Assembly: GCA_030390025.1 (NCBI GenBank)
Contig: CM059432.1
Location: 58,530,001-58,594,000, forward strand
Reading direction: 5' to 3'
DNA length: 64,000 bases
DNA from: Squalus acanthias
Lineage: Eukaryota
Shown: positions 16,762-54,400 of the stretch, one piece after another
Numbering within the stretch: position 1 is the stretch's first letter
Layout of the letters: the number at the start of each line of letters is the position of its first letter
Made by a program: the position numbers and the translations under genes
The notes under the pieces: generated by a model
Seen by the model: only the letters and a program-made list of their open reading frames with translations
What the model was told of the DNA's origin: nothing
Databases searched by the model: none

Positions 16762-19502
16762 ATGCCTACCTTGAAGAAGTTCTGCTCTTCTCTTCGACGG
16801 GATTTCCGTTTGGCTCTTCAACCTTGTTCATCTTCATTGATTTCAGTTTCCCTTCTCGTGTTTGATCAGGTATCTGCCAAGACTCGGTTTCACAGCCACA
16901 TTACTTTCCTCAGCAACTGTCTCCGGTTCCGACTTATCCCACGTGGATTCCAACTAAACTTCCACCCTTCGTGTTTCGGATCCACCCAGGATTACAAATA
17001 TCTCCAAGATATTCATCGTTCCTCGAACTACTGCTCTCGCCGCATCTTGAGATCCACGCTCAATGCCATGCGGCGCCACATGAACACTCTCGACATCTCT
17101 CTTCAGCAGCACCGACGCACTCTATCTCAAAGCTGTCCGGGTCCACAGTTCCATTTCATCCTTAGACTCATCCGACGCTTCAACAAAAAACTTTTCTTCT
17201 TCCTTTCCGATGTCAAGGATCGCAAGCTTCAACAACTCTTGGACACTAAAGCCCCTCCGGAACCTTCTTCCCCTTCACTTTCCTCTGACCCCCCTTCTCC
17301 CAATCTCACCCCCTGCCGCGTTTTCACTATCACCTCTGACCTTCCCCTCTCTGACTCCGAACGATCAGTCCTCAGCAAAGGCCTGAGCTTCATCCCCTTA
17401 CGCCCCCATCTCAATGAATTTCGAGCTCGGCACGATGCTGAGCTCTTTTTCCGCCGCCTCCGTCTCCGTGCCCACTTCTCTGGCCAGGAGTCTTCCCCCC
17501 GCACGGCTGACCCTTTCTCCCGCTTTCAGAATTCTCGTTCCACCTGGACCCCTCCCTCTGGCCTCTTGATCTTTTCATTGCTAACTGCCGCCGTGACATC
17601 GGCCAGCTCAATTTCTCTGCTCCCCTCACTCACTCCAACCTACCTCCCTCTGAACTTGCAGCACTCCATTCTCTCCGATCCAACCCTGACATTGTCATTA
17701 AACCTGCTGACAAGGGTGGCGCTGTTGTTGTTTGGCGAACCGACCTCTACCTAGCGGAAGTTGAACGCCAACTCTCTGACACCTCCTCCTACCTCCACCT
17801 GGACCATGACCCCACTACCGAACATCAAGCCACCGTGTCCAAGACTGTCACTGACCTCATCTCCTCTGGAGATCTTCCCCCCACGGCCGCCAACCTCATA
17901 GTTCCCCAACCCCGCACAGCCCGCTTCTACCTCCTTCCCAAGATCCACAAACAGGACTGCCCCGGTAGACCCATCGTTTCAGCCTGTTCTTGCCCCACGG
18001 AACTTATCTCTTCCTATCTCGACTCTATTTTTTCTCCCCTTGTCCAGTCTCTTCCCACCTACATCCGCGACTCTTCCGATGCCCTCCGCCATTTTAACAG
18101 TTTCCAGTTTCCCGGCCCCAACCGTCTCCTCTTCACTATGGACGTACAATCCCTCTACACCTCCATTCCCCACCAGGATGGCCTGAGGGCGCTCCGCTTC
18201 TTCCTTGAACAGAGGCCCAACCAGTCCCCATCCACCACCAGCCTCCTCCGCCTGGCTGAACTTGTTCTCACATTGAACAACTTCTCCTTTGACTCTACCC
18301 ATTTCCTCCAAATTAAAGGTGTTGCTATGGGTACCCGCATGGGTCCTAGCTATGCCTGCCTTTTCGTGGGATATGTGGAACACTCTTTGTTCCAGTCCTA
18401 CTCGGGTCCCCTCCCTCACCTCTTTTTCCGGTACATTGATGACTGTATCGGTGCCGTCTCCTGCTCTCGCCCTGAACTAGAACATTTCATTCACTATGCT
18501 TCCAATTTCCACCCTTCCCTCACCTTCACATGGTCCATCTCCGACTCTTCTCTTCCCTTCCTCGACTTCTCCATCTCCATCTCTGGGGATAGGTTATTGA
18601 CTAACATTCACTACAAGCCCACCGACTCCCACAGCTACCTGGACTACACTTCCTCCCACCCCGCCTCCTGTAAGGACTCTATTCCATTCTCCCAGTTTCT
18701 CCGTCTCCGCCGCATCTGCTCTGATGATGCCACCTTCCATACCAGTGCTTCCGACATGTCTTCCTTTTTCCTCAACCGAGGATTCCCCTCTACCGTGGTC
18801 GACACGGCCCTCGACCGTGTCCGTTCTATCTCCCGCACATCTGCCCTCACCCCTGCCCCTCCCTCCCGGAACCACGATAGGGTTCCCCTTGTCCTCACCT
18901 TTCACCCCACCAGCCTCCACATTCAACGGATCATCCTCCGCCATTTCCGCCACCTCCAGCGTGATCCCACCACCAAACACATCTTCCCCTCACCTCCCCT
19001 TTCAGCATTCCGCAGGGACCGCTCCCTCCGCGACACCCTAGTCCACTCCTCTACCACCCCCAGCACCCCTTCCCCTTCGCCCGGCACCTTCCCGTGCACG
19101 CGCAGGAGATGCAACACATGCCCTTATACCTCCCCTCTTCCCACTGTCCAGGGCCCCAAACACCCCTTCCAGCTGAAACAGCGATTTACTTGTACTTCCT
19201 GCAATTTAGTATACTGTATTCGCTGCTCACGATGTGGACTCCTCTACATTGGGGAGACCAAACGCAGATTGGGTGACCGCTTTGCGGAACACCTCCGTTC
19301 AGTCCGTAAGGGGGACCCCGAGCTCCCGGTGGCCTGTCACTTTAATTCACCGCTTCACTCCCACTCTGACCTCACCGTCCTCGGCCTAATACATTGTTCC
19401 ACGGAAGCTCAGCGTAAGCTCGAGGAACAGCACCTCATCTTTCGTTTAGGCACGCTACAGCCCTCTGGACTCAATATCGAGTTCAACAATTTTAGATCAT
19501 AA
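16762..19502 (+). pseudogene. Penelope reverse transcriptase / GIY-YIG endonuclease ORF with a single frameshift (~17565)
   Basis: KPADKG, LPKIHK..PGRPIVS, MDVQSLYTSI, GVAMGT, RYIDD, Cys linker CTRRRCNTC, LVYCIRC..CGLLYIGETKR; both halves otherwise open. Confidence 0.95.
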
Positions 19503-26855: not shown

Positions 26856-27615
26856 GGGGCTGAATTTGCGGTCGGAGACTTCCCGGACGGATGCCTCCAA
26901 CCAGCAAAAAATCTACGAACTTACCTGATGGTCCCGGAGGTTCGGACACTTGCACTCCTGGACCTCTACGTGTAGGCCTGCATAGAGGCCCATGTATCCC
27001 AGGGGCGCAGGTGGTTCTCAAACACCCCTGGGATCACGTGGGCCGGCCCAACCAATCAAAGAAGGGGAATCCCCATTCATACTTATGGAGATTCCGTTTG
27101 TACAGAATCCCCATAAGCATGAATGGGGATGACATTAAAAATAGATTTAACATAACAAATAAATAAAAAAATTACATATTTAAAATTAATTAAAATACAA
27201 TATAATTAAACATTTAAAAAACCAAAAAAAAAATTTTGAAGAATAAATTACATATGTTAAATGGTCTAAAAATAAATTTACCTTTGTACATGTGTTTTAA
27301 TGTTTAAAGGAATAAAAATATTTTATTTTTATGTTTTTTTAAATTCTTACGCTGGTAAAAGCAGGCCTTATGCCTGTTTTTACCAGCGTAAGAATTCACG
27401 GACATTCACTGGGCAGAAGTTGGGCAAGTAGCGCAACTCTCCGCCCACGGAGGCCCTTCTCCTGAGGAGGCATGCGATCTGTCAAGATGATTCTTGACAG
27501 ATTGCAAGTTTTGGGTTTTAGCGCATGTGCTTCGCATGCTAAACCTGGAACTTGCGCGGCCCCTACAGGCATTGCGCACCTCGTACACAGCCGTAGGGGC
27601 CGCAAATTACGGCCC
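26856..27615. mobile_element. Harbinger-type MITE M6 (distant relative of M1-M5)
   Basis: TIRs GGGGCTGAATTTGCGG / CCGCAAATTACGGCCC; shares gtatcccaggggcgcag...cccctgggatcacgtgg, central hairpin and AT-rich core. Confidence 0.85.
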
Positions 27616-28169
27616 AATGTTTTTTTTTTCTCACTTTTAACTCCACACTTCTGGTGGAGAACTTAGCCTGCAGGTAACACATCAGAAAGTTGGGCACACC
27701 GCAGTAATGCCAACCCCACCATCTCATAAATCATAAGACAAACTCTTAAAAATCATGAGATTTGGTAAGAAATCATGAGTTTCTATTCTTTCCCGACCCG
27801 ACCCGACCCCTCGTTGACCTTTCCTCCCGGGCAGGAAGCACACTCCGCAACCTTTGCTCCCGGACAGGAAGCGCATTCAGCCGTCACTAAAGACATTTTG
27901 GCCTGTCACGATAAAAGTTGACATTTTTCCCCGGCACAATCTTCTTCCACAACCATTCCACAGCCAATGCAAGAGACCAGCTCAGTCATCCACTCATGCT
28001 ACACCAGCTAACTGTCAAATTGTACACTAGAGTGAACCAATTCTCCCTTTCAGCTTCACATACCACCTTATATAGCTCATTTTAGGGAACAATTGTTTCA
28101 ATGTGTTTTACAGGAGATCTGGGAATGTTGGGCAAGAAACAAGAGAGAAGTCATAATAAGTGATCAAAG

Positions 28170-28480
28170 GCAAAGTCAGTGCTGGGTTGAGGCTTTTGAA
28201 AGTGCTTAAATAGGCAATGAAGTAGAAGAGTTTAGGGAGAGAATCCCAGAGAATAGTGGCATGATGGCTGAACGCTCTGCCACTGATGGTAGTGTAGAGT
28301 GGGACAACACACAGCAGGCTAAAGTGAGAAGAGCAGAAGGTGAATTCTGGAAGGAAGAGCTGTTGGAGATTGCAGGGGTAGCATGGAACAGAGCCATGGG
28401 AAGAACTGTAAAGGAAAACAATTTTTAAATTGTGCTGGAGGTTAGGGAGCCAATGCAGGTCGACAAGAAAAGGAGTGAAT
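28170..28480 (-). mobile_element. Degraded L2 LINE fragment
   Basis: Similar to the L2 at 57560-57900 (tttagggagagaat.ccag..., gggagccaatgcaggtc). Confidence 0.6.
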
Positions 28481-28759
28481 GCATCCTTAACTGTGGTAAC
28501 ACAAACCTGGAAAAATAAAATTTGAAGTAATTCTTAAGAATAGAAATGGCAAATTGAAATAACACAATCCATTTTTAAAAATGTAATAACACAATGTATG
28601 GTGCTCCTTTAAAAATCCTGAGGCTGATACTTATAAATAAAAAAAAGGGTGAAAGTCTCAGCATAGATGAAGCGAAACAAGTACTGCGTCTGATACATAC
28701 GTCAACTAGAGGCCTACACCCTCTGGCTTGGCAAGAATGCAATTCTGCCTATTACTTAC

Positions 28760-28913
28760 CACTGTCAACATTAAAATGCTCATGTCTGGCTTTCAGGACA
28801 TCTATGTTCGCCTCTTTGTCGGTGATGAGTTTCTTAAGCTTGGTCACAGTGTTTTTGGGAAGTTTGGCAAGTTCAGCCCGATCCAGCAGCTGCTGCAACA
28901 CAGCCGCCGGCAT
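28760..28913 (-). CDS. TPR: Nucleoprotein TPR-like coding exon 1 (MPAAVLQQLLDRAELAKLPK...RHEHFNVDS); orphan/captured copy
   Basis: 28/50 identical to the human TPR N-terminus as recalled ([29 protein letters not shown]...RHEKFKVES); open 154-nt exon ending in phase-1 donor G|gtaagt; no TPR exon 2 recognised downstream in the window. Confidence 0.85.
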
Positions 28914-29130
28914 GTTACTGTCTGCGTCTGCAACACCACTCCGTCCGCACTTGGTAAACACGCACAAGTGACAAGCCGCGCAGCGCCCTCTGGAAGTTAA
29001 TAGTCCTGTGCAGGTTTAGTTTCCTTTCTTTAAACAGAATAAACTACATATCCCAGCATGCCCAGCCAGTTGGGCTCCTCCGCATAGTGTGTGGCGGAGC
29101 ACGCACTTCGGTTTGCTCAGCGTGTCAACA
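28914..29130. promoter_or_regulatory. CpG-rich promoter with ZNF143(Staf)/THAP11-type motif and ETS-like sites
   Basis: ACTACATATCCCAGCATGC at 29043-29061; CTGGAAGT ~28990; CACTTCGG ~29104; locally retained CpGs. Confidence 0.75.
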
Positions 29131-29518
29131 ACATTTCAGACAAAGTTTAAAATCTTGAGTTTTCGGCGGTGAACCACGAGATCGCGAGTTAGGCTGAATT
29201 TTCATTACAAATCACGTGTCCCGCGATTAAATCGCGCGAGTTGCCATTACTGACACCGCTGTGCATGATTTTTTCAATTTTAAGTCATGTACAGCACGTG
29301 CTCAAATTTCTGATATGCAATGCTTGTGGGAAAGTCTCCCTGCTGGGAGTATGGAGTGATTTAATATTCTCATAAAACAATATGGGCCAGCAAATTGAAG
29401 TCAACCAATCTCCTCTGTCAGCAGGAGATCTTTTACCTTATTTTATTAAGTACGATTTTTTTTTTGAGTTTCATTATGCGCCTTCACATGGTGACAACAT
29501 AATTTTTTGATACTCTTA

Positions 29519-31640
29519 GGCCTAGAAATTCGAGTACAACACAAAGCTGCCGGTGCCACGACTGCCGAAAATGGTGGCGCCGGTAGGAGTGAAAAATTCA
29601 CACTGGGTACAACTGATTAGTAGCCCAACGCTAAACTCATGGTGTAACGTCGTTCTGGTGGCGTTATTCCCAGCATCAGTCCCGAATGTGGCGTCCAGAA
29701 GCGGCATTGCATCTTCCAACAGCCTCTGGAAGTGAGGCTATGATTTTGCTAGGCATTGTGGGCTATTAAAAGGGCAATGCATTGTTGTTTGCTTAAAAGG
29801 GCAATGCCTTCTGAACTGATAAAAATAAAAATGAAGGGAAAAAATGCAGTTTTCAGGCCTTACAGCTCTACTGCATTGAAAAAAAAATTAACATTTGAAA
29901 AAAATTACCAACTGGGAGCCTTCAACTCTTAAAGCTGAATTCTGTTCCGCACCTAAAAAAATGGGAAAAGTGCTTCAGCACTAACACAAATGGCTTAGCA
30001 AGCCAGGGAAGGGGCACCCAGGGTCTCACACGCAGCACTCCAGCTTTGTGCAGGGGGTCAACACTGCAAGAGAGGCCCTCCAGAAGGAACAATGGGGGAC
30101 CAGATCACCGAGGCCGTCACTGCCAGCAGTGTCATCCCCACCCCCTGGCTCCAGTGCCCAAAGAAGCTTCATGACCTCAGATCACTGGTCAAGGTCAGTG
30201 AATGTATCTTCAAAAGCCGTCTCCTACCAACTGCATCACTAGCCTCACATACTCCACAATGCACGACTCCACCTCCCCCCCATGCCCCCGTCAATCACTC
30301 ACCTACCAACAATCTCTACCGATCACAAGGCACATCTCCCATTCCTAGCTTCACCTCACCCCCTTGGAGAAGACGGTGCTGGCTATTCTTGGCAGGGCCA
30401 TGGCTGAGCCCTTGGCCAGCGGCGGGGCTGAAAGGATAAAAGATGCTGGTATCCTCATACGTTATCCTCCTTCTCGCAAGCACCTCTTGCTTTCCCACCC
30501 TCACCTCACCACAACTCCATCCTTGTGCCTTCCTCATTTCACACACCAAGAAATCCAGCCTGCCCAGTCAGTGGTTGACCAAGAAGAGGGAGAGGAGAGT
30601 GAAAAGAAGAAACACCGTCACTCGATTTCACAATCCCAGCCACCAGCTCCTCAAGGTCGACTAGCAAGGCCATTTGCAGTGTCCCCCACTGAAAGTCAGC
30701 AGCCTTTCACCAGCCATGCTGCAGCCACTGGGGTAGCACTGCGTGACATCAGTAGGATAGGCAAAAGTACACACAAGACAGTCACTAAGGGAATGCATAA
30801 GGGGAATGAGTTGATTTCTTGATATCATATTGGATGGATAGATGTATAAAGTTGGATTGGAAAGTTTGCTTTGTGATGGCTTTTATTTCAGCATTGTGGC
30901 CAAGAGGACGCTGTGATGGTCAGTAACAGATGGAAGGTAAGGTGTGCGACAAATGTTGAAAGGGGAATTGGGGTTGTGGTCACTGGTACTGCAGGTGGAT
31001 GATTCCATCCCGGATATCTCAGCCACAAAGGGGCTGTCTGGGTTGCATCCTTCCTTCTGCTTCCTCTTCTGCATCTTCATCTTCCCTCTGCGAGCAGATG
31101 CTGTAAATCTGAAATAAAAGCAGAAAATGCTGGAAATACTCAGCAGGTCAGGCAGCATCTTGACCTGAGACATGAACTCTGTTTCTCTCTCCACAGATGT
31201 TGCCTGAGTATTTACTGCATTTTCTGTCTTTTCAGAGGACTTCCTTTATCATCCGAGGCCTTGCAAGCGTCCAGCAGCACACCCTGCACCATTAAAAACT
31301 TTTAACATGTATTGCAGCAAGCCACTACTTCAATAAAATAAAAAAAAATCCAGTCCAAAAGCTTAAATGTAAACTTACCTGAAAGATGTGTGTGTCCCTT
31401 TAAGAGATGCTGACAGCCTCTCTGTCAGTCTGCTGAACGCTGGGTTTTCATGGCGCGTTTATGACCCAGCGCTGAACTCAGCGCTAATGTCCAAGTTCAC
31501 CGAGGTGACGTTAAGTCGGCGTGCACGTCACCCTCTCCCTAATTTAAATTTCCACCCAATCGCTTTTACCGGCAGCGCTGCCAGCCCTCGGAAAATGGCA
31601 GACGGCGCGGGACCCGCCACCAGCTGGCGAAAGAGCCATT
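29519..31640. mobile_element. Non-autonomous Harbinger derivative D2
   Basis: TTA|GGCCTAGAAATT left end; colinear with D1 including the embedded Penelope pLTR fragment. Confidence 0.85.
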
Positions 31641-42248: not shown

Positions 42249-43238
42249 CTATGTTGTGCAGCGTGCAGCAAATGACAACAATTCTGGTGTGTACTGAAGG
42301 GCTCCTCCAGATCTGTCAAGGCAGCTGAAGCGCATCTTCAGCATGCCTATTGTTTGCTCTATGACACATCTGGTGGAAATGTGGCTTTCATTATAGCACT
42401 CCTGAGCCTCATTGCTTGGCACCCTCAAAGGTGTCATGAGCCATGTCTTCAGTGGATACCCCTTGTCTCCAAGCAGCCAGCCGGTAAGTCTGTTTGGCGA
42501 TGTGAAGAGCTGAGGGAGGGTGGACTGGTGCAGGACGAAAGTGTCATGACAGCTGCCAGGGAATTTGGCACACACATGCATGATGATCTTCCTATGTTTG
42601 CAGATGAGCTGCACATTAAGGGAGTGGAAGCCCTTGCGGTTCACAAAGACTCCTGGGTGATGTGCGGGTGCCCTGATGGCCACATGTGTGCAGTCGATGA
42701 AGCCCTGCACCCGTGGGAAGCCAGCCAGAGCGGCAAAGCCGAGTGCCCACTCATTAACACTGGCTTTATCAGTGGCAACGTTTACATAATTGGCTGACTT
42801 GTCAAAGAGGGCATCGGTGACCTGTGTGATGCATCTGTGGGCGGCCAACTGTGAGATGCCGCAAATGTCTGCTCCAGATGCCTGGAAGGAGCTTGAGGCG
42901 AAGAAGTTCAGGGCACTGGTGACTTTGAAAGCCACTGGCAAGGCATGTCCACCAGGTCCTCTGGGCTGCAGGTCTTGCTCCAGCAATCTGCAAATGTCTG
43001 CGACGACCTGGCGCGATAGCCTGAGCCTCCTTTGGCACTGCTGCTCCGTCATGTTGAGGAAGCTCATCCTCTGCCTGTATACCCTGTGTTGGGGGTACTG
43101 CCCTGCGCTGATGCCCTCTGACTTGTGGAGCATCAGGTCATTGAGGAGAAGGTTGTTGGTGTTGTTGCTGCTGCTGCTGGTGTTGGGGCTCATCCTGGTC
43201 CAATTGTGAGGACCAAGGTGAGACAGTATAAGCGGCAC
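42249..43238 (-). pseudogene. HARBI1-like transposase of Harbinger B (core open, ends frameshifted)
   Basis: GFIDCTH, LLGDKGY and RCVIEQTIG retained; C-terminus deleted/frameshifted after LQYTPE. Confidence 0.9.
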
Positions 43239-46200
43239 CCATGCTGATGTAATAGATGGCAGGTCAAGTAGAGATCAGAGGAGCAATCTGTCAATGTTGT
43301 GATAGTTACTTGCAATGTGGTGAGAGCAGCTTACAAGGTTGCAGAAAAGACTTTCAAACTCTAGACACCTAAATCTGTGCTCAAAATGGAGTCAGCAAGA
43401 GCCTTTCGCATAGGCAAGTAAGCAGGTGCCAAGTGGAAGTATTTATTGGCATTTCCATGCTGTGCATTAATGACATTGATCAATGGCCACTTCCGCCTCA
43501 GCTTGACAGACGTAGGGCTGGATTTCCCAAGCCCCGAGGAGGCGGGCATGGAGGCGGGACAGCCCGTAAAATCGGAGAAAGTGGGGGCGGATGGCAAACC
43601 CGCCCATCCCGCCTCCGTGCCCACTTGCCAGGAGGCGGGAAGATGTGCAGCTTCGGGTCCCGTCTCCTGGAGGCGGGAAAGGAATTTAATCCTTTTAACT
43701 GCCTGTTAACAGGTAGTTAACAGGCAGAAAAAAGGATTAGTGCCATTTTACCATCACAGGTGAAGGCTTCCCGACCTCGGAGAACCCCGCCGGGTTGGAG
43801 GAGACGTGGAGAAGGTCTGCGGTGGTTGGAGGCACCTGGAAATAAGGTGTAGAGGTGAGTGATGGGTGCAAGTGTGGAGTGGTAAGTATGCAAGGTGAGT
43901 GATTAGTTTAAAAAAGTGTTCACTTACCTTTTTCTCCTTCTATAGCCTTTAGCCGCGCTGGATTGGGAGAGAGGACATCCACCTTGTCAATTTCAGGTAA
44001 TGGCTGATGGACCCTCCGATCCATCAGACATCGGAAATTTACTTATTTTCAATGTTTGTTGAGTCCTCACCACAAAGACTCATCAAACTAAAGAGAATGT
44101 CGGTGTTTGACAGCTTCACAGAGCTGTCAGACGGTGTCATTTCTTCTTTCAAGAAGCATAGAAGCATAGAAGATAGGAGCAGGAGTAGGCCGTTCGGCCC
44201 CTCGAGCCTGCTCCGCCATTTAATGAGATCACGGCTGATCATCCAAATTCAGTACCCTGTCCCTGCTTTCTCTCCATATCCCTTGATCCCTTTAGCCTTA
44301 AGAAATATATCTATCTCCTTCTTGAATATATTTAATGAATTGGCCTCAAGTGCCTTCTGTGGTAGAGAATTCCACAGGTTCACCACTCTCTGGGTGAAGA
44401 AATTCCTCCTCATCTCAGTCCTAAATGGCTTATCCCTTATCCTTAGACTGTGACCCCTGGTTCTAGACTCCACCGCCATCGGGAACATCCTTCCTGCATC
44501 TAGTTTGTCTAGTCCTGTTAGAATTTTTTAAGTTTCAATGAGATCCCCTCTCATTCTTCAAAACTCTAGCGAATACAAGCCCAATCGTCCCAATCTCTCT
44601 TCATACGTCATTCCTGCCATCCCAGGTATCAGTCTGGTGAATCTTCGCTGCACTCCCTCCATGGCAAGAACATCCTTCCTCAGATAAGGCGACCAAAACT
44701 GCACACAATACTCAAGGTGTGGTCTCACCAAGGCCTTGTACAACTGCAGCAAGACATCCTTGCTCCTATACTTGAATCCTCTCGCTATGAAGGCCAACAT
44801 ACCATTTGCCTTCTTAACTGCCTGCTGCACCTGCATGCTTACCTTCAGTGACTGGTGCACAAGGACTCCCAGATCTCGTTGCACTTCCCCTTTTCCAATC
44901 TATTGCCGTTCAGATAATAATCTGTCTTCCTGTTTTTGCCACCAAAGTGGATAACCTCGCATTTATCCACATTATACTGCATCTGCCATGCATCTGCCCA
45001 ATCACCCAACCTGCCCAAATCATACTAGAGTTTCTCAGCATCCTCCTCACAGCACACACGCCCACCCAGCTTTGTGTCATCTGCAAACTTAGAGATATTA
45101 CATCTAGTTCCCTCGTCTAGATCATTAATATATATTGTGAATAGCTGGGGTCCTAGCACCGATCCCTGTGGTACCCCACTAGTCACTGCCTGCCACTCGG
45201 AAAAAGACCCGTTTATTCCAACTCTTTGCTTCCTGTCTGCCAACCAGTTCTCTATCCAAGTCAGTACCTCACCCCCAATCCCATGTGCTTTAACTTTGCA
45301 CACTAATCTCTTATGCGGGACCTTATCGAAAGCCTTCTGAAAGTCCAAATACACCACATCCACTGTTTCTCTCTTATCTATTCTACCAGTTATATCCTCA
45401 AAAAATTCCAGTAGATTAGTCAGGCATGATTTCCCTTTTGTAAATCCATGTTGACTTTGTCCGATCCTATCATTGTTTTCCAAGTGCTCTGCTATTACAT
45501 CTTTTATAATGGACTCTAGCATTTTGCCCACTACCGATGTCAGGCTTACCGGTCTATAATTCCTCGTTTTTTCTCTACCACCTTTTTTAAATAGTGGGGT
45601 TACATTAGCTACCCTCCAATCCATGGGAACTGTTCCAGAGTCTATAGAATTTTGGAAGATGACCAGCAATGCATCTATTATTTCTAGGGCCACTTCCTTA
45701 AGTACCCTAGGATGTAGATTATCAGGCCCTGGGGATTTATCGGCCTTCAATCCCACCAATTTCCCTAACACCATTTCCCTACAAATAGTGATTTCATTCA
45801 ATTCCTCCCTCTCATTAGACCCTATGTTCCCCGACATCTGTGGGAGTTTATTTGTGTCCTCCTTTGTGAAGACAGAACCAAAGTATGTATTTAATTCGTC
45901 AGCCACTTCTTTGTTCCCCATTATAAATTCCCCTGATTCTGACTGCAAGGGACCTACGCTTGACTTCACCAATCTTTTTCTCTTCACATATCTATAGAAG
46001 CTTTTACAGTCAGTTTTTATGTTCCCTGAAAGCTTACTCTCATATTCTATTTTCCCCCTCTTCGTCCTCCTTTGCTGAATCCTAAACTGCTCCCAATCCT
46101 CAGGTTTGCTGCTTTTTCTGGCCAATTTATATGTCCTCTCCTTGGATCTTATGCTATCCCTAATTTCCCTTGTTAGCCACGGTTGAGTCACCTTTTTTGT

Positions 46201-47169: not shown

Positions 47170-48165
47170 ATTATGATCGCTCCTCCCCAGGGGCCTCGCA
47201 CAACAAGATTGTAATTAATCCTTTCTGATTACATAATACCCAGTCTAAGATGGCCTGATCTCTAGTTGGTTCCTCGACATATTGGTCCAGGAAACCATCC
47301 CGTATACACTCTAGGAATTCCTCCTCCACAGTATTGTTACTAATTTGGTTAGCCCAATCTATATGTAGATTAAAGTCACCCATGATAACTGCTGTGTCCT
47401 TATTGCACGCATCTCTAATTTCCCATTTAATGCCATCCCCAACCTCAGCATTACTGTTTGGGGGTCTGTATACAACTCCCACTAATGTTTTCTGCCCCTT
47501 GGTATTTCTCAGCTCCACCCATACAGATTCCACATCATCAGAGCTAATATCCTTTCTTACTATTGTGTTAATCTCTTTAACCAGCAATGCTACCCCACCT
47601 CCTTTTCCTTTTTGTCTGTCCTTCCTGAATATTGAATACCCCTGGATGTTGAATTCCCAGCCTTGATCACCCTGGAGCCATGTCTCCGTAATCCCAATTA
47701 TATCATATCCGTTTACATCTATTTGCGCAGCTAATTTATCCACCTTATTACGAATGCTCCTCGCATTAAGACACAATGCCTTCAGGCTTGTTTTTTTAAC
47801 ACTCTTAGGGGGAAAAATTAGGTCGCGCCCCGTTTGGGGAGCAGATATCGTCTGGACGCAAAAATTAGCGCCTGGCGCTAATTATCGCCACTGACTGGAA
47901 ACTTCACTTTTACCGCCCCGGGAGGTGAGTGGAGCGCTAAATCAGGCGCTGCACACCTGTCTTAAGGCGCAAAGGCTGAGCAGTGAGGCACTAACTCAGC
48001 GCGCGAGTGCAGCGCAGGTGCTGCCAGTTAGCGAGGGAACACAGACACACTGGCACCGGCCAGTTCTTAAAGGGCGGGGGCCAACTTGCTCCCCAGCCAC
48101 ACCCTGCTCATTGCAGCCTTGAATCTCGGCCTGGAGAGACCTGTGAATCCATTTTGCAGCCAAGG

Positions 48166-49997
48166 ATGGAGAGGGTGAGAGAACGAGCTCAGCGCTTCAC
48201 CGAGCGGGCCTTGGATGCTCTGGTTGGCGCGGTGGAGCGCAGAAGATCTATACTCTTCCCTGAGAGTGGCAGGAGGCCTTTGCCACGCGAGTACAGAAGA
48301 GTGTGGAGGGAGGTGGCTCAGAGCGTCTCCTCCAGGAGAATGGTGCCCAGGACCCATGTTCAATGCCGCAAAAAGTTCAACGACCTCACTCGGGTCGTCA
48401 GGGTGAGTGGCTTTTTCTCAATACCTCTCCATCCCTCCATCTCAACCTCACTCTATGGCCAGAGGGTCTTAAAACCCCAATGCACAACACTCATCCAACA
48501 CCTATGGCCCTTTCATGAAACACACACACACATTCCACACTTTGCATACAGTAAGGGCTATTCACCTATGGGAGGCACATCAGGCAAGACCATGGCTGTA
48601 TATTTACTCAGATGCTGTCCTTTTTCTTGCAGGCCAAGCTGGCGCATAATAGGAGACAGCAGCAACGGACAGGTGGAGGGCGGCCTCAGCTGCAACCCCT
48701 CAGCGATCTTGAGGAGCGCGTCCACAGGATTGTGGCAAGCCGGGTGATCGGTCCCGTCGCCACTGGAGACGCCGACCCCGTTCTGGACAGCAATGGTAAG
48801 GTCATCACCTTTTTGTCCTCTGTCCTTCCGCTTGTCCCTCACAACACCAGCCTTTGACACTTTCAATCCAACTTGCTAACTCGCTGCACTTATTCCTCCC
48901 TTACTGCCACCCTGTCCTCACGCTAAAGCCACTCTTGTACCTCCCTGCTTTCAGATGGTGATTCACCAGCTGAGGAGACGGGCCCTGAAGCTGCCAGTGG
49001 GAGTGAAGCTGCAGCCGAGGAGGAAGAGGAAGCCGGAGCATCAGTGCCACCCTCTCCCGAGGAAGCCCATGCCCACACTGGGAACACGCCTTCCCTAGAG
49101 GGGAGCAGGGGGGAAGGGTCTGATGAGGGTGAAGCTCCAGGACCCAGCGGGCTGCAGCAACGCCATGGGGGTAGGGAAGAACGGGGGCCTTCTCCCCAGC
49201 GGGAGAGTATGCCAGCGACTCCTACTGCAATGGACGCAGAGGAGGAGCGGCTGATCGCAGAAATGAACACCCAGGCGGTGGGCATGCACACTGAGCTCAT
49301 GGGTGCAGTGGGAAGGGTGCCCGAATGCATTGAGTCACTGGCAAGGAGTGTGGAGCACTTCGCTGTAGCACAGGCGGATGCCACACTAAAGCTTAGAGCT
49401 GCAATTCAGTCACTGACTGCCGTGATCCCATCTCTGACTGCTCTCATGCAGACTCAGATTGAGGCCACGCGAGCACTGTCTGCTGCCAACCTCGATGGTT
49501 CGTTCACATGTCCCCGGGGCTGTCACCGCGCCGCAGCAGGCCAGCAATCTGTGCTCCAGCAGATTGCTCCAGATGCTGAAGTGCTGCCCCGTGGGAGTGC
49601 CAGTGTGTCGGGCGAGCAGGGAGTTGCTGTCCTCTCTCACGATGACAGCATTCCTGCTGCCAACACTGTCACTTCTCCACTGCACTTGCCACCGCCTGTA
49701 GGACAGACTGCTGCCGCCCATGCAGAGTTGGTGCAGTCTGCAGCCGGGCCCTCCAGTCCCAGAACTGGTCGAGGTGTCCTTCAGGGGCATCTGCAGTGTC
49801 AGGGTCTGACAATCAGCAGCCTTCCACCAGCCTTGCTGCAGCCACTGAGGTCCCATTACGGAGGAGCAGTAGGGTTAGAAGGGGGGAAGTGCGCAAGGGA
49901 AGGAGATCACCCTCGAAGGGCAAAAAGTAGGAGGTGTGACAAAATGCTGGTCATTTTTTTATTAAAGGCCGAGGTTCGTGGTTCAACTTTTGTTTAG
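48166..49997 (+). CDS. Harbinger Myb/SANT-like protein, exons 48166-48402, 48633-48795, 48955-49997 (480 aa as read; probable 1-bp deletion near 49775 alters the C-terminus)
   Basis: All GT-AG sites intact and phase-compatible (0, 1); RAQRFTERALDALV...WREVA...QCRKKFNDL. Confidence 0.9.
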
Positions 49998-50242: not shown

Positions 50243-51403
50243 CTAGAAGCGGCTTGCTATCAGCCGTTGACGGACGGCCCTTGCAGTTTCACCATTGTGG
50301 GCCGCCCTCCCGCCTTGGTGCTGCTGATGATCATCCTCCTCGTCCTCTTCCTCCTCTTCCTCCTCCTCCTCTGGTGGTGCTCCAAGGCCTGGTGGCATTG
50401 GCTGGGTCCTGACGATTGCCATGTTATGCAACATGCAGCACACAACTACGAAGTTGGATACTCGCTCAGGCGAGTACTGCAGGGCTCCTCCAGAATGGTC
50501 GAGACAGCGGAACCGTTGCTTCAGCACGCCGATTGTGCGCTCAATGATGTTCCTGGTAGCTTGATGGCTCTCGTTGTACCGCAGCTCAGCAGGGGTGTTG
50601 GGCGTACGGAGCGGTGTCATCAGCCAGGTGCACAATGGATACCCCTTGTCCCCGAGAAGCCAACCAACTGGCTGATGCGGTGCCTCGAAAAGTTCTGCCA
50701 CAGTAGTCTGGCGCAGGATGAAAGCATCGTGGCAGCTGCCAGGATAGTGGGCATTGACAGCGAGTATCAGCTGTCTGTGGTCACAGACCAACTGAACATT
50801 CAAGGAATGGAACCCCTTTCTGTTCCGGAAATCCTCGGCATTCTCATGTGGAGCACGCAAAGCCACATGCGTGCAGTCAATGGCGCCCTGCACCATGGGG
50901 AAGCCCGCTATCCTCGCAAAGCCCAGAGCGCGGTCACGCTGCTTGTCTAGGGTCATGGGGAAAGAGATGAACTCTCGTCTCCTTTTAAAGAGGGCATTTG
51001 TGACCTGCCGGTTGCAGCAATGCACCGCGAACTGGGAGATATTGGCGAGGTCCCCAGCAGCAGCTTGAAATGAGCCAGTAGCATAGAAGTTGAGAGCCAC
51101 TGTGACCTTCACTGCCACCGACAGAGACGTCCTGGACCTCAGTTGAGGCTGCAGATCTGGCTGCAGCAGGTGGCAGAGCTCAGTGACCACCTCCTTGCTG
51201 AATCGCAGCCTTCGCAAACACAGCTCCTCAGACATATGAATGTAGGAGAGCTGTTCACGATATACCCTGGGAGGGTAAGCTCTCCTGTACAGATGCCTGT
51301 TGGCCCTCCTCCGTCTGGCCATCATTGCCACTCTCTCTCTGCGTCTCTGTGTCCTCCGATTCAGCTGGAGCAGGACGACACCCCCATTCAGTGCAGCCCC
51401 CAT
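50243..51403 (-). CDS. HARBI1-like DDE transposase, intact, 386 aa
   Basis: Uninterrupted ORF with GAIDCTH, LLGDKGY and RNIIERTIG catalytic motifs; acidic C-terminal tail. Confidence 0.96.
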   Translation of the reverse strand: MGAALNGGVVLLQLNRRTQRRRERVAMMARRRRANRHLYRRAYPPRVYREQLSYIHMSEELCLRRLRFSKEVVTELCHLLQPDLQPQLRSRTSLSVAVKVTVALNFYATGSFQAAAGDLANISQFAVHCCNRQVTNALFKRRREFISFPMTLDKQRDRALGFARIAGFPMVQGAIDCTHVALRAPHENAEDFRNRKGFHSLNVQLVCDHRQLILAVNAHYPGSCHDAFILRQTTVAELFEAPHQPVGWLLGDKGYPLCTWLMTPLRTPNTPAELRYNESHQATRNIIERTIGVLKQRFRCLDHSGGALQYSPERVSNFVVVCCMLHNMAIVRTQPMPPGLGAPPEEEEEEEEEDEEDDHQQHQGGRAAHNGETARAVRQRLIASRF

Positions 51404-54400
51404 AGTCTCTTTGCAAGCAAAGTTATGAAGGACAGCAACCAAAGTACCAGCGAAGTTAGGATCAGTAGGCAAAACTACCTCACAAAGCGTTGACTCAATG
51501 CAGAAGTCTCTCTTTCTCTCTCTCCGAATCTCTCTCTCTCTCTCAGAACGAGTGGTGCAAAAATGTCAACCACAGAAAAAGACAGGAAGAGGCCCCCTTT
51601 AAATAGCGCCCCCCCCCAGCCCCACAGCGATTGATAGCGTTCCAGTCTTCCGGTCGTTGGATGCGCCAGGTGGTAAGGCAGGGGGCGCCACTCAATTTCC
51701 GCTCCGGGGCGCCACAAGGGCGTTGCACCATGGAATGACGTCACAATCTGCGCGCGCAGGTGGTCGCGGCGGTAAAGTTTAGCACCGCCACACAATGTCT
51801 AGTTAAGTTCCCGAGCGGCGCAAACATCGCTGCGCCCGGGCGCTAGCGGCTTTGCGCCCCATTAGCGCCCTCTTAAGGCGCTAACGGGAGGCGCAACCAA
51901 CTGAATTTTTCCCCCTTAGTCCTTTTAGAATTATTATTTACTGTAGCCCTGTTTGATTTACACCCTTGATTTCTCTGCCTTCCACTTTTGCCTTTTCTCC
52001 TTCCTGTCATTTGCTTCTATCCTTGCTTCCCTTTCCTCTGTTTCCCTGCACAGGTTCCCAACCCCCTGCCACTTTAGTTTAAACCCTCCCCAACAGCACT
52101 AGCAAACACTCCCCCTAGGACATCGGTCCCGGTCCTGCCCAGGTGCAAACCGTCCAGTTTGTACTGGTCCCACCTCCCCCAGAACCGGTTCCAATGTCCC
52201 AGGAATTTGAATCCCTCCCCCTTGCTGGTAAGGAAGTCTTGACAGATAGCACGTCTGATGTTGACATGATCTGTCAGTGACTTCTTCCCTAATTGGCTTG
52301 CTGAGCCCGCAGGGCGGGCTTAACAAGCTCAATCAGGGGAAAATCCCTCTGAATGGTCAGGCGAGGATGGAGGCGGGACATTGATACGACAAGCAGCAGT
52401 CCCGCCTCTAACTCGCCTCCATTCACAAAATCCAGACCGTAGTTTCCGAGCTGCATGATTCCCGTGGTCATCCAGTGAAATGCAAAAGGTCTGATTAAAA
52501 TCCCTGTTAAAGGTCTCACAACAAGGATTTAAAGAGCTTAATTAGCTCGCCCGCCTCTGCCGTTCGGATCTGTGGCGCGCTGGCAAACATACCCGAGTTA
52601 AAGGCGCGAGGAGGCAGAATGACAGCGTGTTCCCAACGCGCTCCCATTTTCTGCAACTCTTACTGCTGACCCGCCTCCAAACCCACACACACGGCAGTGG
52701 GACAATTCCGGCCAACATCTCAGTGCTGCAGTGGAAGCTCAGACTGCTGCCATCATGGTTGGGTTTACGAGTGTGGAAAGGGGCTTGCAGGGTCTCACAG
52801 CACTTCAGCAATCTGTCCCCCAACAGATGCATAGGATTGCTGAGACACCTCCCCGGGGGAGTGGCAGTGGCTCCGTGGAGCAAGAACCTGCTGTCCTCTC
52901 TCAGGATGACTGCATTCGTACTCCCAACACTGCCACTCTGCCAGTGCCCTTGCTGCTGCCTATCATCCAGCCAGCCCAGACTGCTGCCACCCATGCCAAG
53001 ATGGTGCAGTGTACAGCTGGGCCTTCTAGGGCCAGAGCTGCTTGAGGTCGTCCTGCAAGGCCATCTGTAGTCTCCCCCACTGAAAGTCAGCAGCTGTCCA
53101 CCAGCCATGCTGCAGCCATTGTGGAGCACTAGAGTAGGAGCACTAGAGTTGGAAAAGGAACACTAAAGACAGACAATATGGGAATGCACAAAGGTGATTA
53201 GTTGATGTTGTTGTTTTGATAAATTTATAAATTATGTTTGAAATGTTTGTTTTGTGATGACTCTCATTTCAGCTTGATGTCCAGGAGGACACTGTGATGT
53301 TCCATGACAGAGGGATGGTACGGTGGGGAAGGGTTAAGCAATGGGGCTCTGGGGTTTCATTCATTGGAACCGGAGTCTGATGAGGCGCTCACAGACAGCC
53401 CGTCCTCCCTTCCTTCTCCTCATCCTCCTCTTCTTCCTGCTCCTCTGCTTCCTCCTCCTCTTCTTCCTCCTCCTCCTGAAGTGTTCCCGGAACCCATGGT
53501 GGCAAGGGCTGTGCCCTCATGATGGCCAAGTTGTGGAGGATGCAGCAGACCACCATGAAATGGGACACCCACTCCAGTGAGTACTAGAGGGCTCCTCCCG
53601 AGCGGCCAAGGCCGTGGAACCATTGCTTGAGCACCCCAATTGCTCGATAAGGTTCCTCGTGGCAGCATGGCTCTGATTATATGAGTGCTGGCCACTAGTG
53701 GTGGGGTTGTGGAGGGGAGTCATCAGCCAGGTATAGAGCAGATAGCCTTTGTCTCTGAGAAGCCACCCTCAGGGTTTATGTGGTGGCTGGAAGATTGCTG
53801 GCACACCGGACTGACGCAGGATGAAGGCATGACTGCTTCCAGGATAGCGGGCATTCACCATCATGATGCGTTGGGCATGGTCACACAACAACTGCACATT
53901 AAGTGAGTGGTAGACTTTGCAGTTATGGAACATCTCAGGATTGTTATGCGGTGCCCACAGAGCCACGTGTGTGCAATCGATGGTGCCCTGCACCATGGGT
54001 AACATGGGTAAGCCCGATATTCTGACAAAGCCACAAGCGCGCTCCTCCTGCTTTTCTCTGTTTAGAGAGAAGACAATGAAGTCCCTTCTCATGGAATACA
54101 GAGCCTCTGTGACCTCCCGGGTGCAGCGATGGACGGCGAACTGAGAGATTTTAGCTATGTCTCCTGCTCCAGACTGGAAGGATCCGCTGGTGAAAATATT
54201 GTGGGGCACGGTGACCTTGAGGGTCACTGGCAGCGCCGTCATTGCCCTGCTCTGAGGCTGCAGGTCTGGTTACAGGAGGTGGCAGAGTTCTGTGTCCACC
54301 TCCTTGGTGAAGCAGAGCCTTCTAATATACTGCTCCTGGCTTAAATACAGGTAGGAGAAGTGCTCTCGGAAGACCCCAGGTGGGTAAGGCCTCCTGCTGA

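Follow-up and report, generated by a model that had tools for sequence, protein, structure and literature searches.

The window, the whole 64-kb stretch of DNA that was analysed (C8:58,530,001-58,594,000 of a 3.71-Gb assembly), contains a single occurrence of a 1,551-bp element (27702-29252) in which the 5' end of a TPR gene is enclosed by the two ends of a DNA transposon. The features of the element and its insertion site, in window coordinates, are:

27678..29317 (arms 27678-27697 and 29298-29317), no strand: imperfect palindrome split by the insertion, from inverted-repeat detection
27696..27701, +: left target site duplication (TSD), 6 bp, ACACCG, directly adjoining the left terminal inverted repeat (TIR)
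27702..27714, +: left TIR, 13 bp, CAGTAATGCCAAC, inverted match to the right TIR
27702..27890, +: left end of the transposon, including its subterminal repeats, common to family members without TPR
27888..27890, +: intron-side 3-bp microhomology TAA, seen when eight non-TPR ends were aligned with the native locus and the TPR copies
27888..28759, -: 5' portion of TPR intron 1 within the cargo, matching native L050:1490-2136 and part of 661-1208
28754..28759, -: donor site of TPR exon 1, GTAAGT, from the sequence
28760..28913, -: coding exon 1 from TPR, 154 nt with an open frame from its ATG, 40/51 residues identical to the native exon
28914..29042, -: captured TPR 5' UTR and proximal promoter, from alignment with the native locus
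29036..29062, +: promoter-side homology block with ACTACAnnTCCCA (ZNF143 SBS2 / THAP11 type), common to the transposon end and the native promoter
29042..29252, +: transposon right end, CpG-rich, common to family members without TPR
29240..29252, +: right TIR, 13 bp, GTTGCCATTACTG, inverted match to the left TIR
29253..29258, +: right TSD, 6 bp, ACACCG, directly adjoining the right TIR

The TIRs, which are mismatched at 1/13 positions, and the perfect TSD lie exactly where a preliminary description of this DNA had placed them. Its subterminal ATC(A/G)(T/C)GAG repeats are found mostly close to the ends if one mismatch is permitted (12 sites), but the exact motif occurs at only three sites (27752, 27772 and 29181). 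Element positions 1-189 and 1341-1551 are common to family members that lack TPR, and the terminus at 27702 is marked independently by contigs of a second organism (organism B; runs X2 and X3 of one sample), many of which begin exactly there, more than 100 contigs per run having loose ends before 27702. The immediate flanks of the element are single-copy in the genome. The imperfect palindrome predates the insertion, and the reconstituted insertion site folds at -24.6 kcal/mol, a value without a shuffle control. To the left of the element, a cluster of short palindromes at 27069-27506 (27069-27130, 27342-27396 and 27473-27506) belongs, by contig depths, to a very high-copy repeat.

The cargo, ~1.17 kb in length, is a copy of part of the native TPR gene, which lies on contig C15. 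The native matches and the family-common ends give the order of the element as transposon end, 5' part of TPR intron 1, exon 1, ~130 bp of TPR upstream sequence, and transposon end. The open exon and its donor are as first described: the 51-aa product aligns with human TPR structures in the PDB (E 1.9e-11) and is identical to primate TPR at 28/49 residues, whereas a Pfam search with this product found nothing significant and a homologue search found no match among candidate proteins of up to 2000 aa. The supposed CpG-rich promoter is indeed CpG-rich (observed/expected 0.84-0.98 in three 200-bp bins across 28800-29399, versus 0.47 for the window), but the host-derived sequence upstream of the ATG amounts to only ~130 bp, and ~210 bp of the 'promoter' (29042-29252) belongs to the end of the transposon itself. 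The element contains a host promoter, a start codon and a splice donor, a promoter-exon-donor cassette whose layout would make it, by design, a potential exon trap.

The native TPR gene, which starts at C15:59,635,839, has a full exon chain, aligned to whale-shark TPR in 38 colinear HSPs that cover 1888/1911 aa. Its exon 2 is single-copy and lies 4.2 kb downstream of exon 1, the PDB alignment continuing there, and the best homologue of a native TPR exon is whale-shark TPR (87%), followed by that of the elephant shark (74%), which makes an elasmobranch the most likely host. The best match to TPR_MLP1_2 is on C15, with 0/26 matches on C8, and 0/24 native downstream TPR exon frames match the window. 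The earlier statements that no exon 2 is recognisable downstream in the window, and that this is a mobilised promoter and exon-1 cassette rather than native TPR, are thereby borne out; the expectation that the native gene would lie near ODR4 is not, as ODR4 (C15:57528341-57563171) is on the same contig but ~2.1 Mb from TPR. In mammals, TPR and ODR4 are arranged head-to-head, an arrangement that is not kept here. Matches between the native locus and the element are confined to element positions 184-832 (84%) and 837-1361 (81%); these pieces are separated by a ~280-bp insertion that is now in the native intron and is absent from the captured intron and from the continuous copies. There are no TIRs or element ends at the native junctions, and within the surrounding 20 kb TIR-like 13-mers occur only kilobases away.

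The ends of the element come from the transposon family and its interior from native TPR, with microhomology at both junctions. The left junction is common to 4/4 anchored copies and so is the right. On the promoter side, a block containing ACTACAnnTCCCAG is carried by 9/9 cargo-free right ends and by the native promoter, and the copies have native sequence on one side of the motif block and transposon on the other. The THAP11 site lies embedded in the ZNF143 SBS2 motif according to PMC3627581, and the ACTACAnnTCCCAG block matches that site as given there. The homology at this junction is 19/30 ungapped (23/28 by eye with one gap); the score of 19/30 is reached at three of 259,940 native-region positions, the junction among them, and in 0/3000 random pairs.

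TPR cargo is present at no fewer than eight dispersed loci besides the native one (C8, C13, C2 twice, C12, C5, C20 and C3), a lower bound from an interior search in which 40 of 74 candidates were scored; other interior matches are short and fall in an old repeat inside the intron. The four copies with both ends have distinct 6-bp TSDs (ACACCG, CAGTTC, CTGATG and CAGCTA/CAGCTT), which indicates mobilisation to the eight or more loci and upholds the proposal that the cassette had been amplified as a transposon family. In the left-end sequence examined for the C3 copy, no TIR was found. Among two-ended family members generally, 7/10 have a TSD of 6 bp (at most one mismatch) and 0/10 reach that level at any other length from 4 to 10 bp, so that the element boundaries are not due to chance; none of the three members without a TSD carries TPR. 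A degenerate 17-mer of the element ends has 301 exact occurrences, and its reversed control has none.

Seven copies entered the alignment and tree, the fragmentary C3 copy being left out of these and of the selection counts; the C20 copy has no exon, and the native intron insertion was dropped before distances were computed. Distances of the copies to their majority sequence are 0.05-0.08, those between copies 0.07-0.16 and those to the native locus 0.12-0.18; at 73/1125 columns the native sequence differs from a base on which every covering copy agrees. The tree is star-like, with no inner branch strongly supported, which points to one old burst; a single capture followed by a burst of transposition in trans would fit these data best. 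Contigs of organism B bridge both junctions of the window copy (27596-27765 and 29045-29697, ~94% identity), and a third covers the exon (~96%). They are read as an orthologous insertion in a relative because paralogues differ by 10-13%, and the bridging of both ends in that relative argues that the insertion is old. No empty-site joint was seen in the 15 of 92 contig joints that were listed.

The preliminary description attributed the preservation of reading frame, donor and CpGs to selection as one possibility, which the comparison of copies fails to support. The divergence from human TPR that had been remarked upon (28/50, here 28/49) is real but is lineage divergence, since the native exon itself scores 26/49 against primate TPR. 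Among the copies, exon distances (0.027-0.119) are not smaller than intron distances (0.049-0.082), and the pooled pN/pS is 0.65 (p=0.13), compared with 0.22 on the native branch, these being simple pathway counts; as they are corrected for neither transitions nor CpGs, neutral values are driven below 1. The ATG, frame and donor are all kept in 3/8 copies, against a neutral expectation of ~24% (p=0.31). Ancestral CpG observations are now TG, CA or TA in 38/117 cases in the copies, as against ~6% substitution per site in the intron, which suggests germline methylation; the difference in CpG decay between the native locus and the copies is not significant (p=0.26). The simplest account of the copies is neutral decay. 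The pN/pS of the window copy, 0.35 by the same uncorrected count (6 N, 5 S; one-sided p=0.08), and the three intact copies out of eight are non-significant and lean towards constraint.

The pN/pS of the window copy is one of the arguments for supposing that the Pack origin is right and the window copy has been exapted, under weak constraint, as an alternative promoter and first exon (an exon trap) that would serve a host or non-coding transcript lying downstream. Its ATG, frame and donor are intact, 7/9 of its promoter CpGs are kept, the insertion has been retained in organism B, and the mechanism has been demonstrated for HelibatN3-NUBPL in bats (PMC4778049). Exaptation is nevertheless quite improbable: the exon of the window copy has diverged more than its intron (0.083 versus 0.052), it has six amino-acid changes, one of them in the second codon, and CpG-type losses at 3/9 exon CpGs, its inner SBS-like motif (near 28991-29005) carries damage, the proportion of intact copies is near that expected of neutral ones, and the Pfam matches among 32 of the 87 long frames of the window are to retro- or Harbinger-type transposon domains or low-complexity repeats. 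Four contig sets (X1-X4), none of them recorded as RNA, were compared, and the exon-region pieces listed from X1 and X4, both guessed to be RNA, are unlike the window copy: among the X1 pieces listed for the exon region, a contig continues beyond 28813 in native TPR exon letters, and a 4,867-nt X4 contig covers 28813-28925 only, with nine differences from the window copy. An X1 contig at 28126-28373 with one difference was considered as evidence of expression and rejected, as it has the same end as the X2/X3 contigs and DNA may be present in the run. In this stretch of the captured intron, the tail of an old repeat, X1 and X2/X3 contigs alike show one difference, whereas neighbouring orthologous pieces differ by 4-6%.

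It is very unlikely that two independent element ends moved TPR exon 1 as a composite, or that the copies are segmental duplications. The family is abundant enough to provide such ends (the 301 occurrences of the 17-mer), and in a sibling subfamily interior-like sequence adjoins an element end at some loci; but the native junctions are without element ends, both capture junctions lie inside the transposon and show microhomology, the TSDs are distinct and the flanks unique. The alternative that this exon is the genuine exon 1 of TPR, or that it begins a second TPR gene, as the open exon with its donor and CpG-rich upstream region might suggest, is refuted, barring gross misassembly, by the C15 exon chain with its single-copy exon 2 close behind the native exon 1, and by the absence from C8 of TPR_MLP1_2 matches and from the window of downstream exon frames.

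The element is very probably a multicopy Pack-TIR that arose by one capture of the ~1.17-kb TPR 5' end, spread in trans and is now decaying neutrally. Like the multicopy Pack-TIRs described by Tan et al. (PMC8277862), it is a TIR element with TSDs that carries a fragment of a non-TE host gene from a distant parent, with distinct TSDs among its copies and microhomology at the junctions, and the ends of its family also occur cargo-free. According to that survey, microhomology is present at one or both breakpoints in 67.6% of Pack-TIRs, and template switching followed by transposition is proposed for the multicopy ones. To judge by the junction sequence alone, the TPR 5' end may have been gained once by a non-autonomous element from a DNA transposon family with 6-bp TSDs, hAT6-like in anatomy, through template switching in the course of gap repair or of fork restart. 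The switch would have entered the TPR promoter at the ACTACAnnTCCCAG motif that is also present in the transposon end, and returned to the transposon at the 3 bp in TPR intron 1. The chimera, retaining both ends but no transposase gene, could then have moved in trans to at least eight loci, at which the copies, that of the window included, are now most likely in neutral decay.

Animal Pack-TIRs in the same survey (Tan et al. 2021, PMC8277862) are predominantly hAT elements (208/370), but only four multicopy cases were found in 100 reference genomes, with none in the elephant shark row of its supplement; a frog example is hAT-N8_XT, which carries the CAPSL 5' UTR at three loci. The TPR element differs from the multicopy cases reported there in its eight or more copies, its occurrence in an elasmobranch, its 6-bp TSD, a cargo that comprises a core promoter, a coding exon and a donor, and the position of one junction in a transcription-factor motif. 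It resembles the bat element HelibatN3, in which exon trapping and transcripts have been shown (Grabundzija et al. 2016, PMC4778049), in that a host promoter of NUBPL, N-terminal codons and a splice donor were captured and amplified by a DNA transposon; HelibatN3 is a rolling-circle Helitron, whereas the TPR element has TIRs and a TSD, and any transcript from it is hypothetical. Literature searches found no paper on the element or on capture of TPR within their coverage, outside which lay most subscription journals and Repbase Reports.

Plant Pack-MULEs are non-autonomous TIR elements that carry gene fragments, with a preference for the GC-rich 5' ends of genes; they number in the thousands and have long TIRs and TSDs of 9-10 bp, unlike the TPR element with its 13-bp TIRs and 6-bp TSD. 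The element had been assigned to hAT, and this holds only with a qualification, since the canonical 8-bp TSD is matched by 0/10 two-ended elements and a 6-bp TSD by 7/10. A TSD of 6 bp instead of 8 defines the hAT6 group (PMC12730594), hAT TIRs are 10-25 bp long (PMC3942097), and the TPR element combines a 6-bp TSD with short TIRs; other groups with 6-bp TSDs exist, such as IS3EU, which has longer TIRs and other termini (PMC12730594). None of 64 frames from family interiors contains a hAT domain, and the 3' ends of six hAT dimerisation matches, out of at least 150 listed, do not match the ends of the element family: five of the six belong to one family with different termini, and the sixth piece has no recognisable terminus. 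The element would fit a hAT6 non-autonomous element in its behaviour, the label being drawn from the anatomy of its ends and TSD. Two hAT families were seen besides, an older one (L062-L066) with different termini that ends ~250 bp after the dimerisation domain, and an abundant younger one with ORFs of ~650 codons.

Other members of the transposon family carry other interiors, which are themselves multicopy:

L026:568-633, -: SDR-like exon from ATG to GTAAGT (KVVLVTGAN) in a CpG-rich stretch, L026-type subfamily
L068:1123-1188: SDR-like exon, donor lost, L026-type subfamily
L070:219-1216: L026-type subfamily member with the SDR-like exon, frame shifted
L019:2834-2950, -: histone H2A C-terminal coding fragment (Pfam PF16211, E 1.9e-16)
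L027:560-1686 and L029:614-1687: subfamily of 1.1 kb with both ends, TSDs of 6 bp and an interior that is 5'-UTR-like and has a GA-repeat

The SDR-like exon, which may resemble HSD17B7 exon 1, had no Pfam or PDB match as a 22-aa peptide, and none of 18 scored adh_short matches lies at the loci of this exon. A candidate parent on C15 was rejected, being another two-ended element. At C4:120322717-120323342 and C10:48180036-48180215, an element end starts directly after L026-type interior, which suggests a nested or tandem arrangement, or capture of flanking DNA. The H2A-fragment interior follows the family left end at L019, examined without its far end, and among 40 loci that were scored about 12 reach into the fragment. 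The L027/L029 interior has at least five full-length matches and dozens that are partial or full. The commonest type of right end (L013, L014, L016, L020, L021 and L022) has a common CT-rich interior and a ZNF143/THAP11-type motif, and is possibly the founder non-autonomous subfamily.

From the one capture at a motif and the three other multicopy interiors it might be argued that the 6-bp-TSD family plays in a vertebrate the part that Pack-MULEs play in plants, repeatedly collecting host 5' gene ends, its own ZNF143/THAP11 motif steering capture to promoters with the same motif, and that it has seeded many promoter-exon-donor traps, some of which, perhaps including the window copy, drive chimeric transcripts. 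This broader reading is unlikely, and the absence of the junction motif from L026, L027, L030 and L070 counts against a general motif-guided rule.

The TPR element illustrates cleanly, in a vertebrate, a kind of gene-fragment capture that is known but uncommon. The case is unusually complete, with the parent gene, cargo-free ends, the two junctions, four TSDs and, in a relative, an orthologous insertion all available. Its relevance to transposon biology is probably moderate, and any function of the element is hypothetical. In the one animal-wide survey considered, multicopy gene capture by TIR elements was rare and the only cartilaginous fish row found had none; together with the sibling subfamilies, the TPR element suggests that shark genomes are richer in Pack elements than the survey would indicate. 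That one junction falls within a common transcription-factor motif offers a testable idea of why captures may favour promoters. For annotation, stray TPR first exons in this genome are not genes. Elsewhere in the window, a Penelope-type reverse transcriptase with a GIY-YIG frame lies at 17511-19502 (+), and Harbinger-type transposase and Myb frames lie at 42249-43274, 50243-51565 and 53769-54269 (-) and at 47995-48747 (+).
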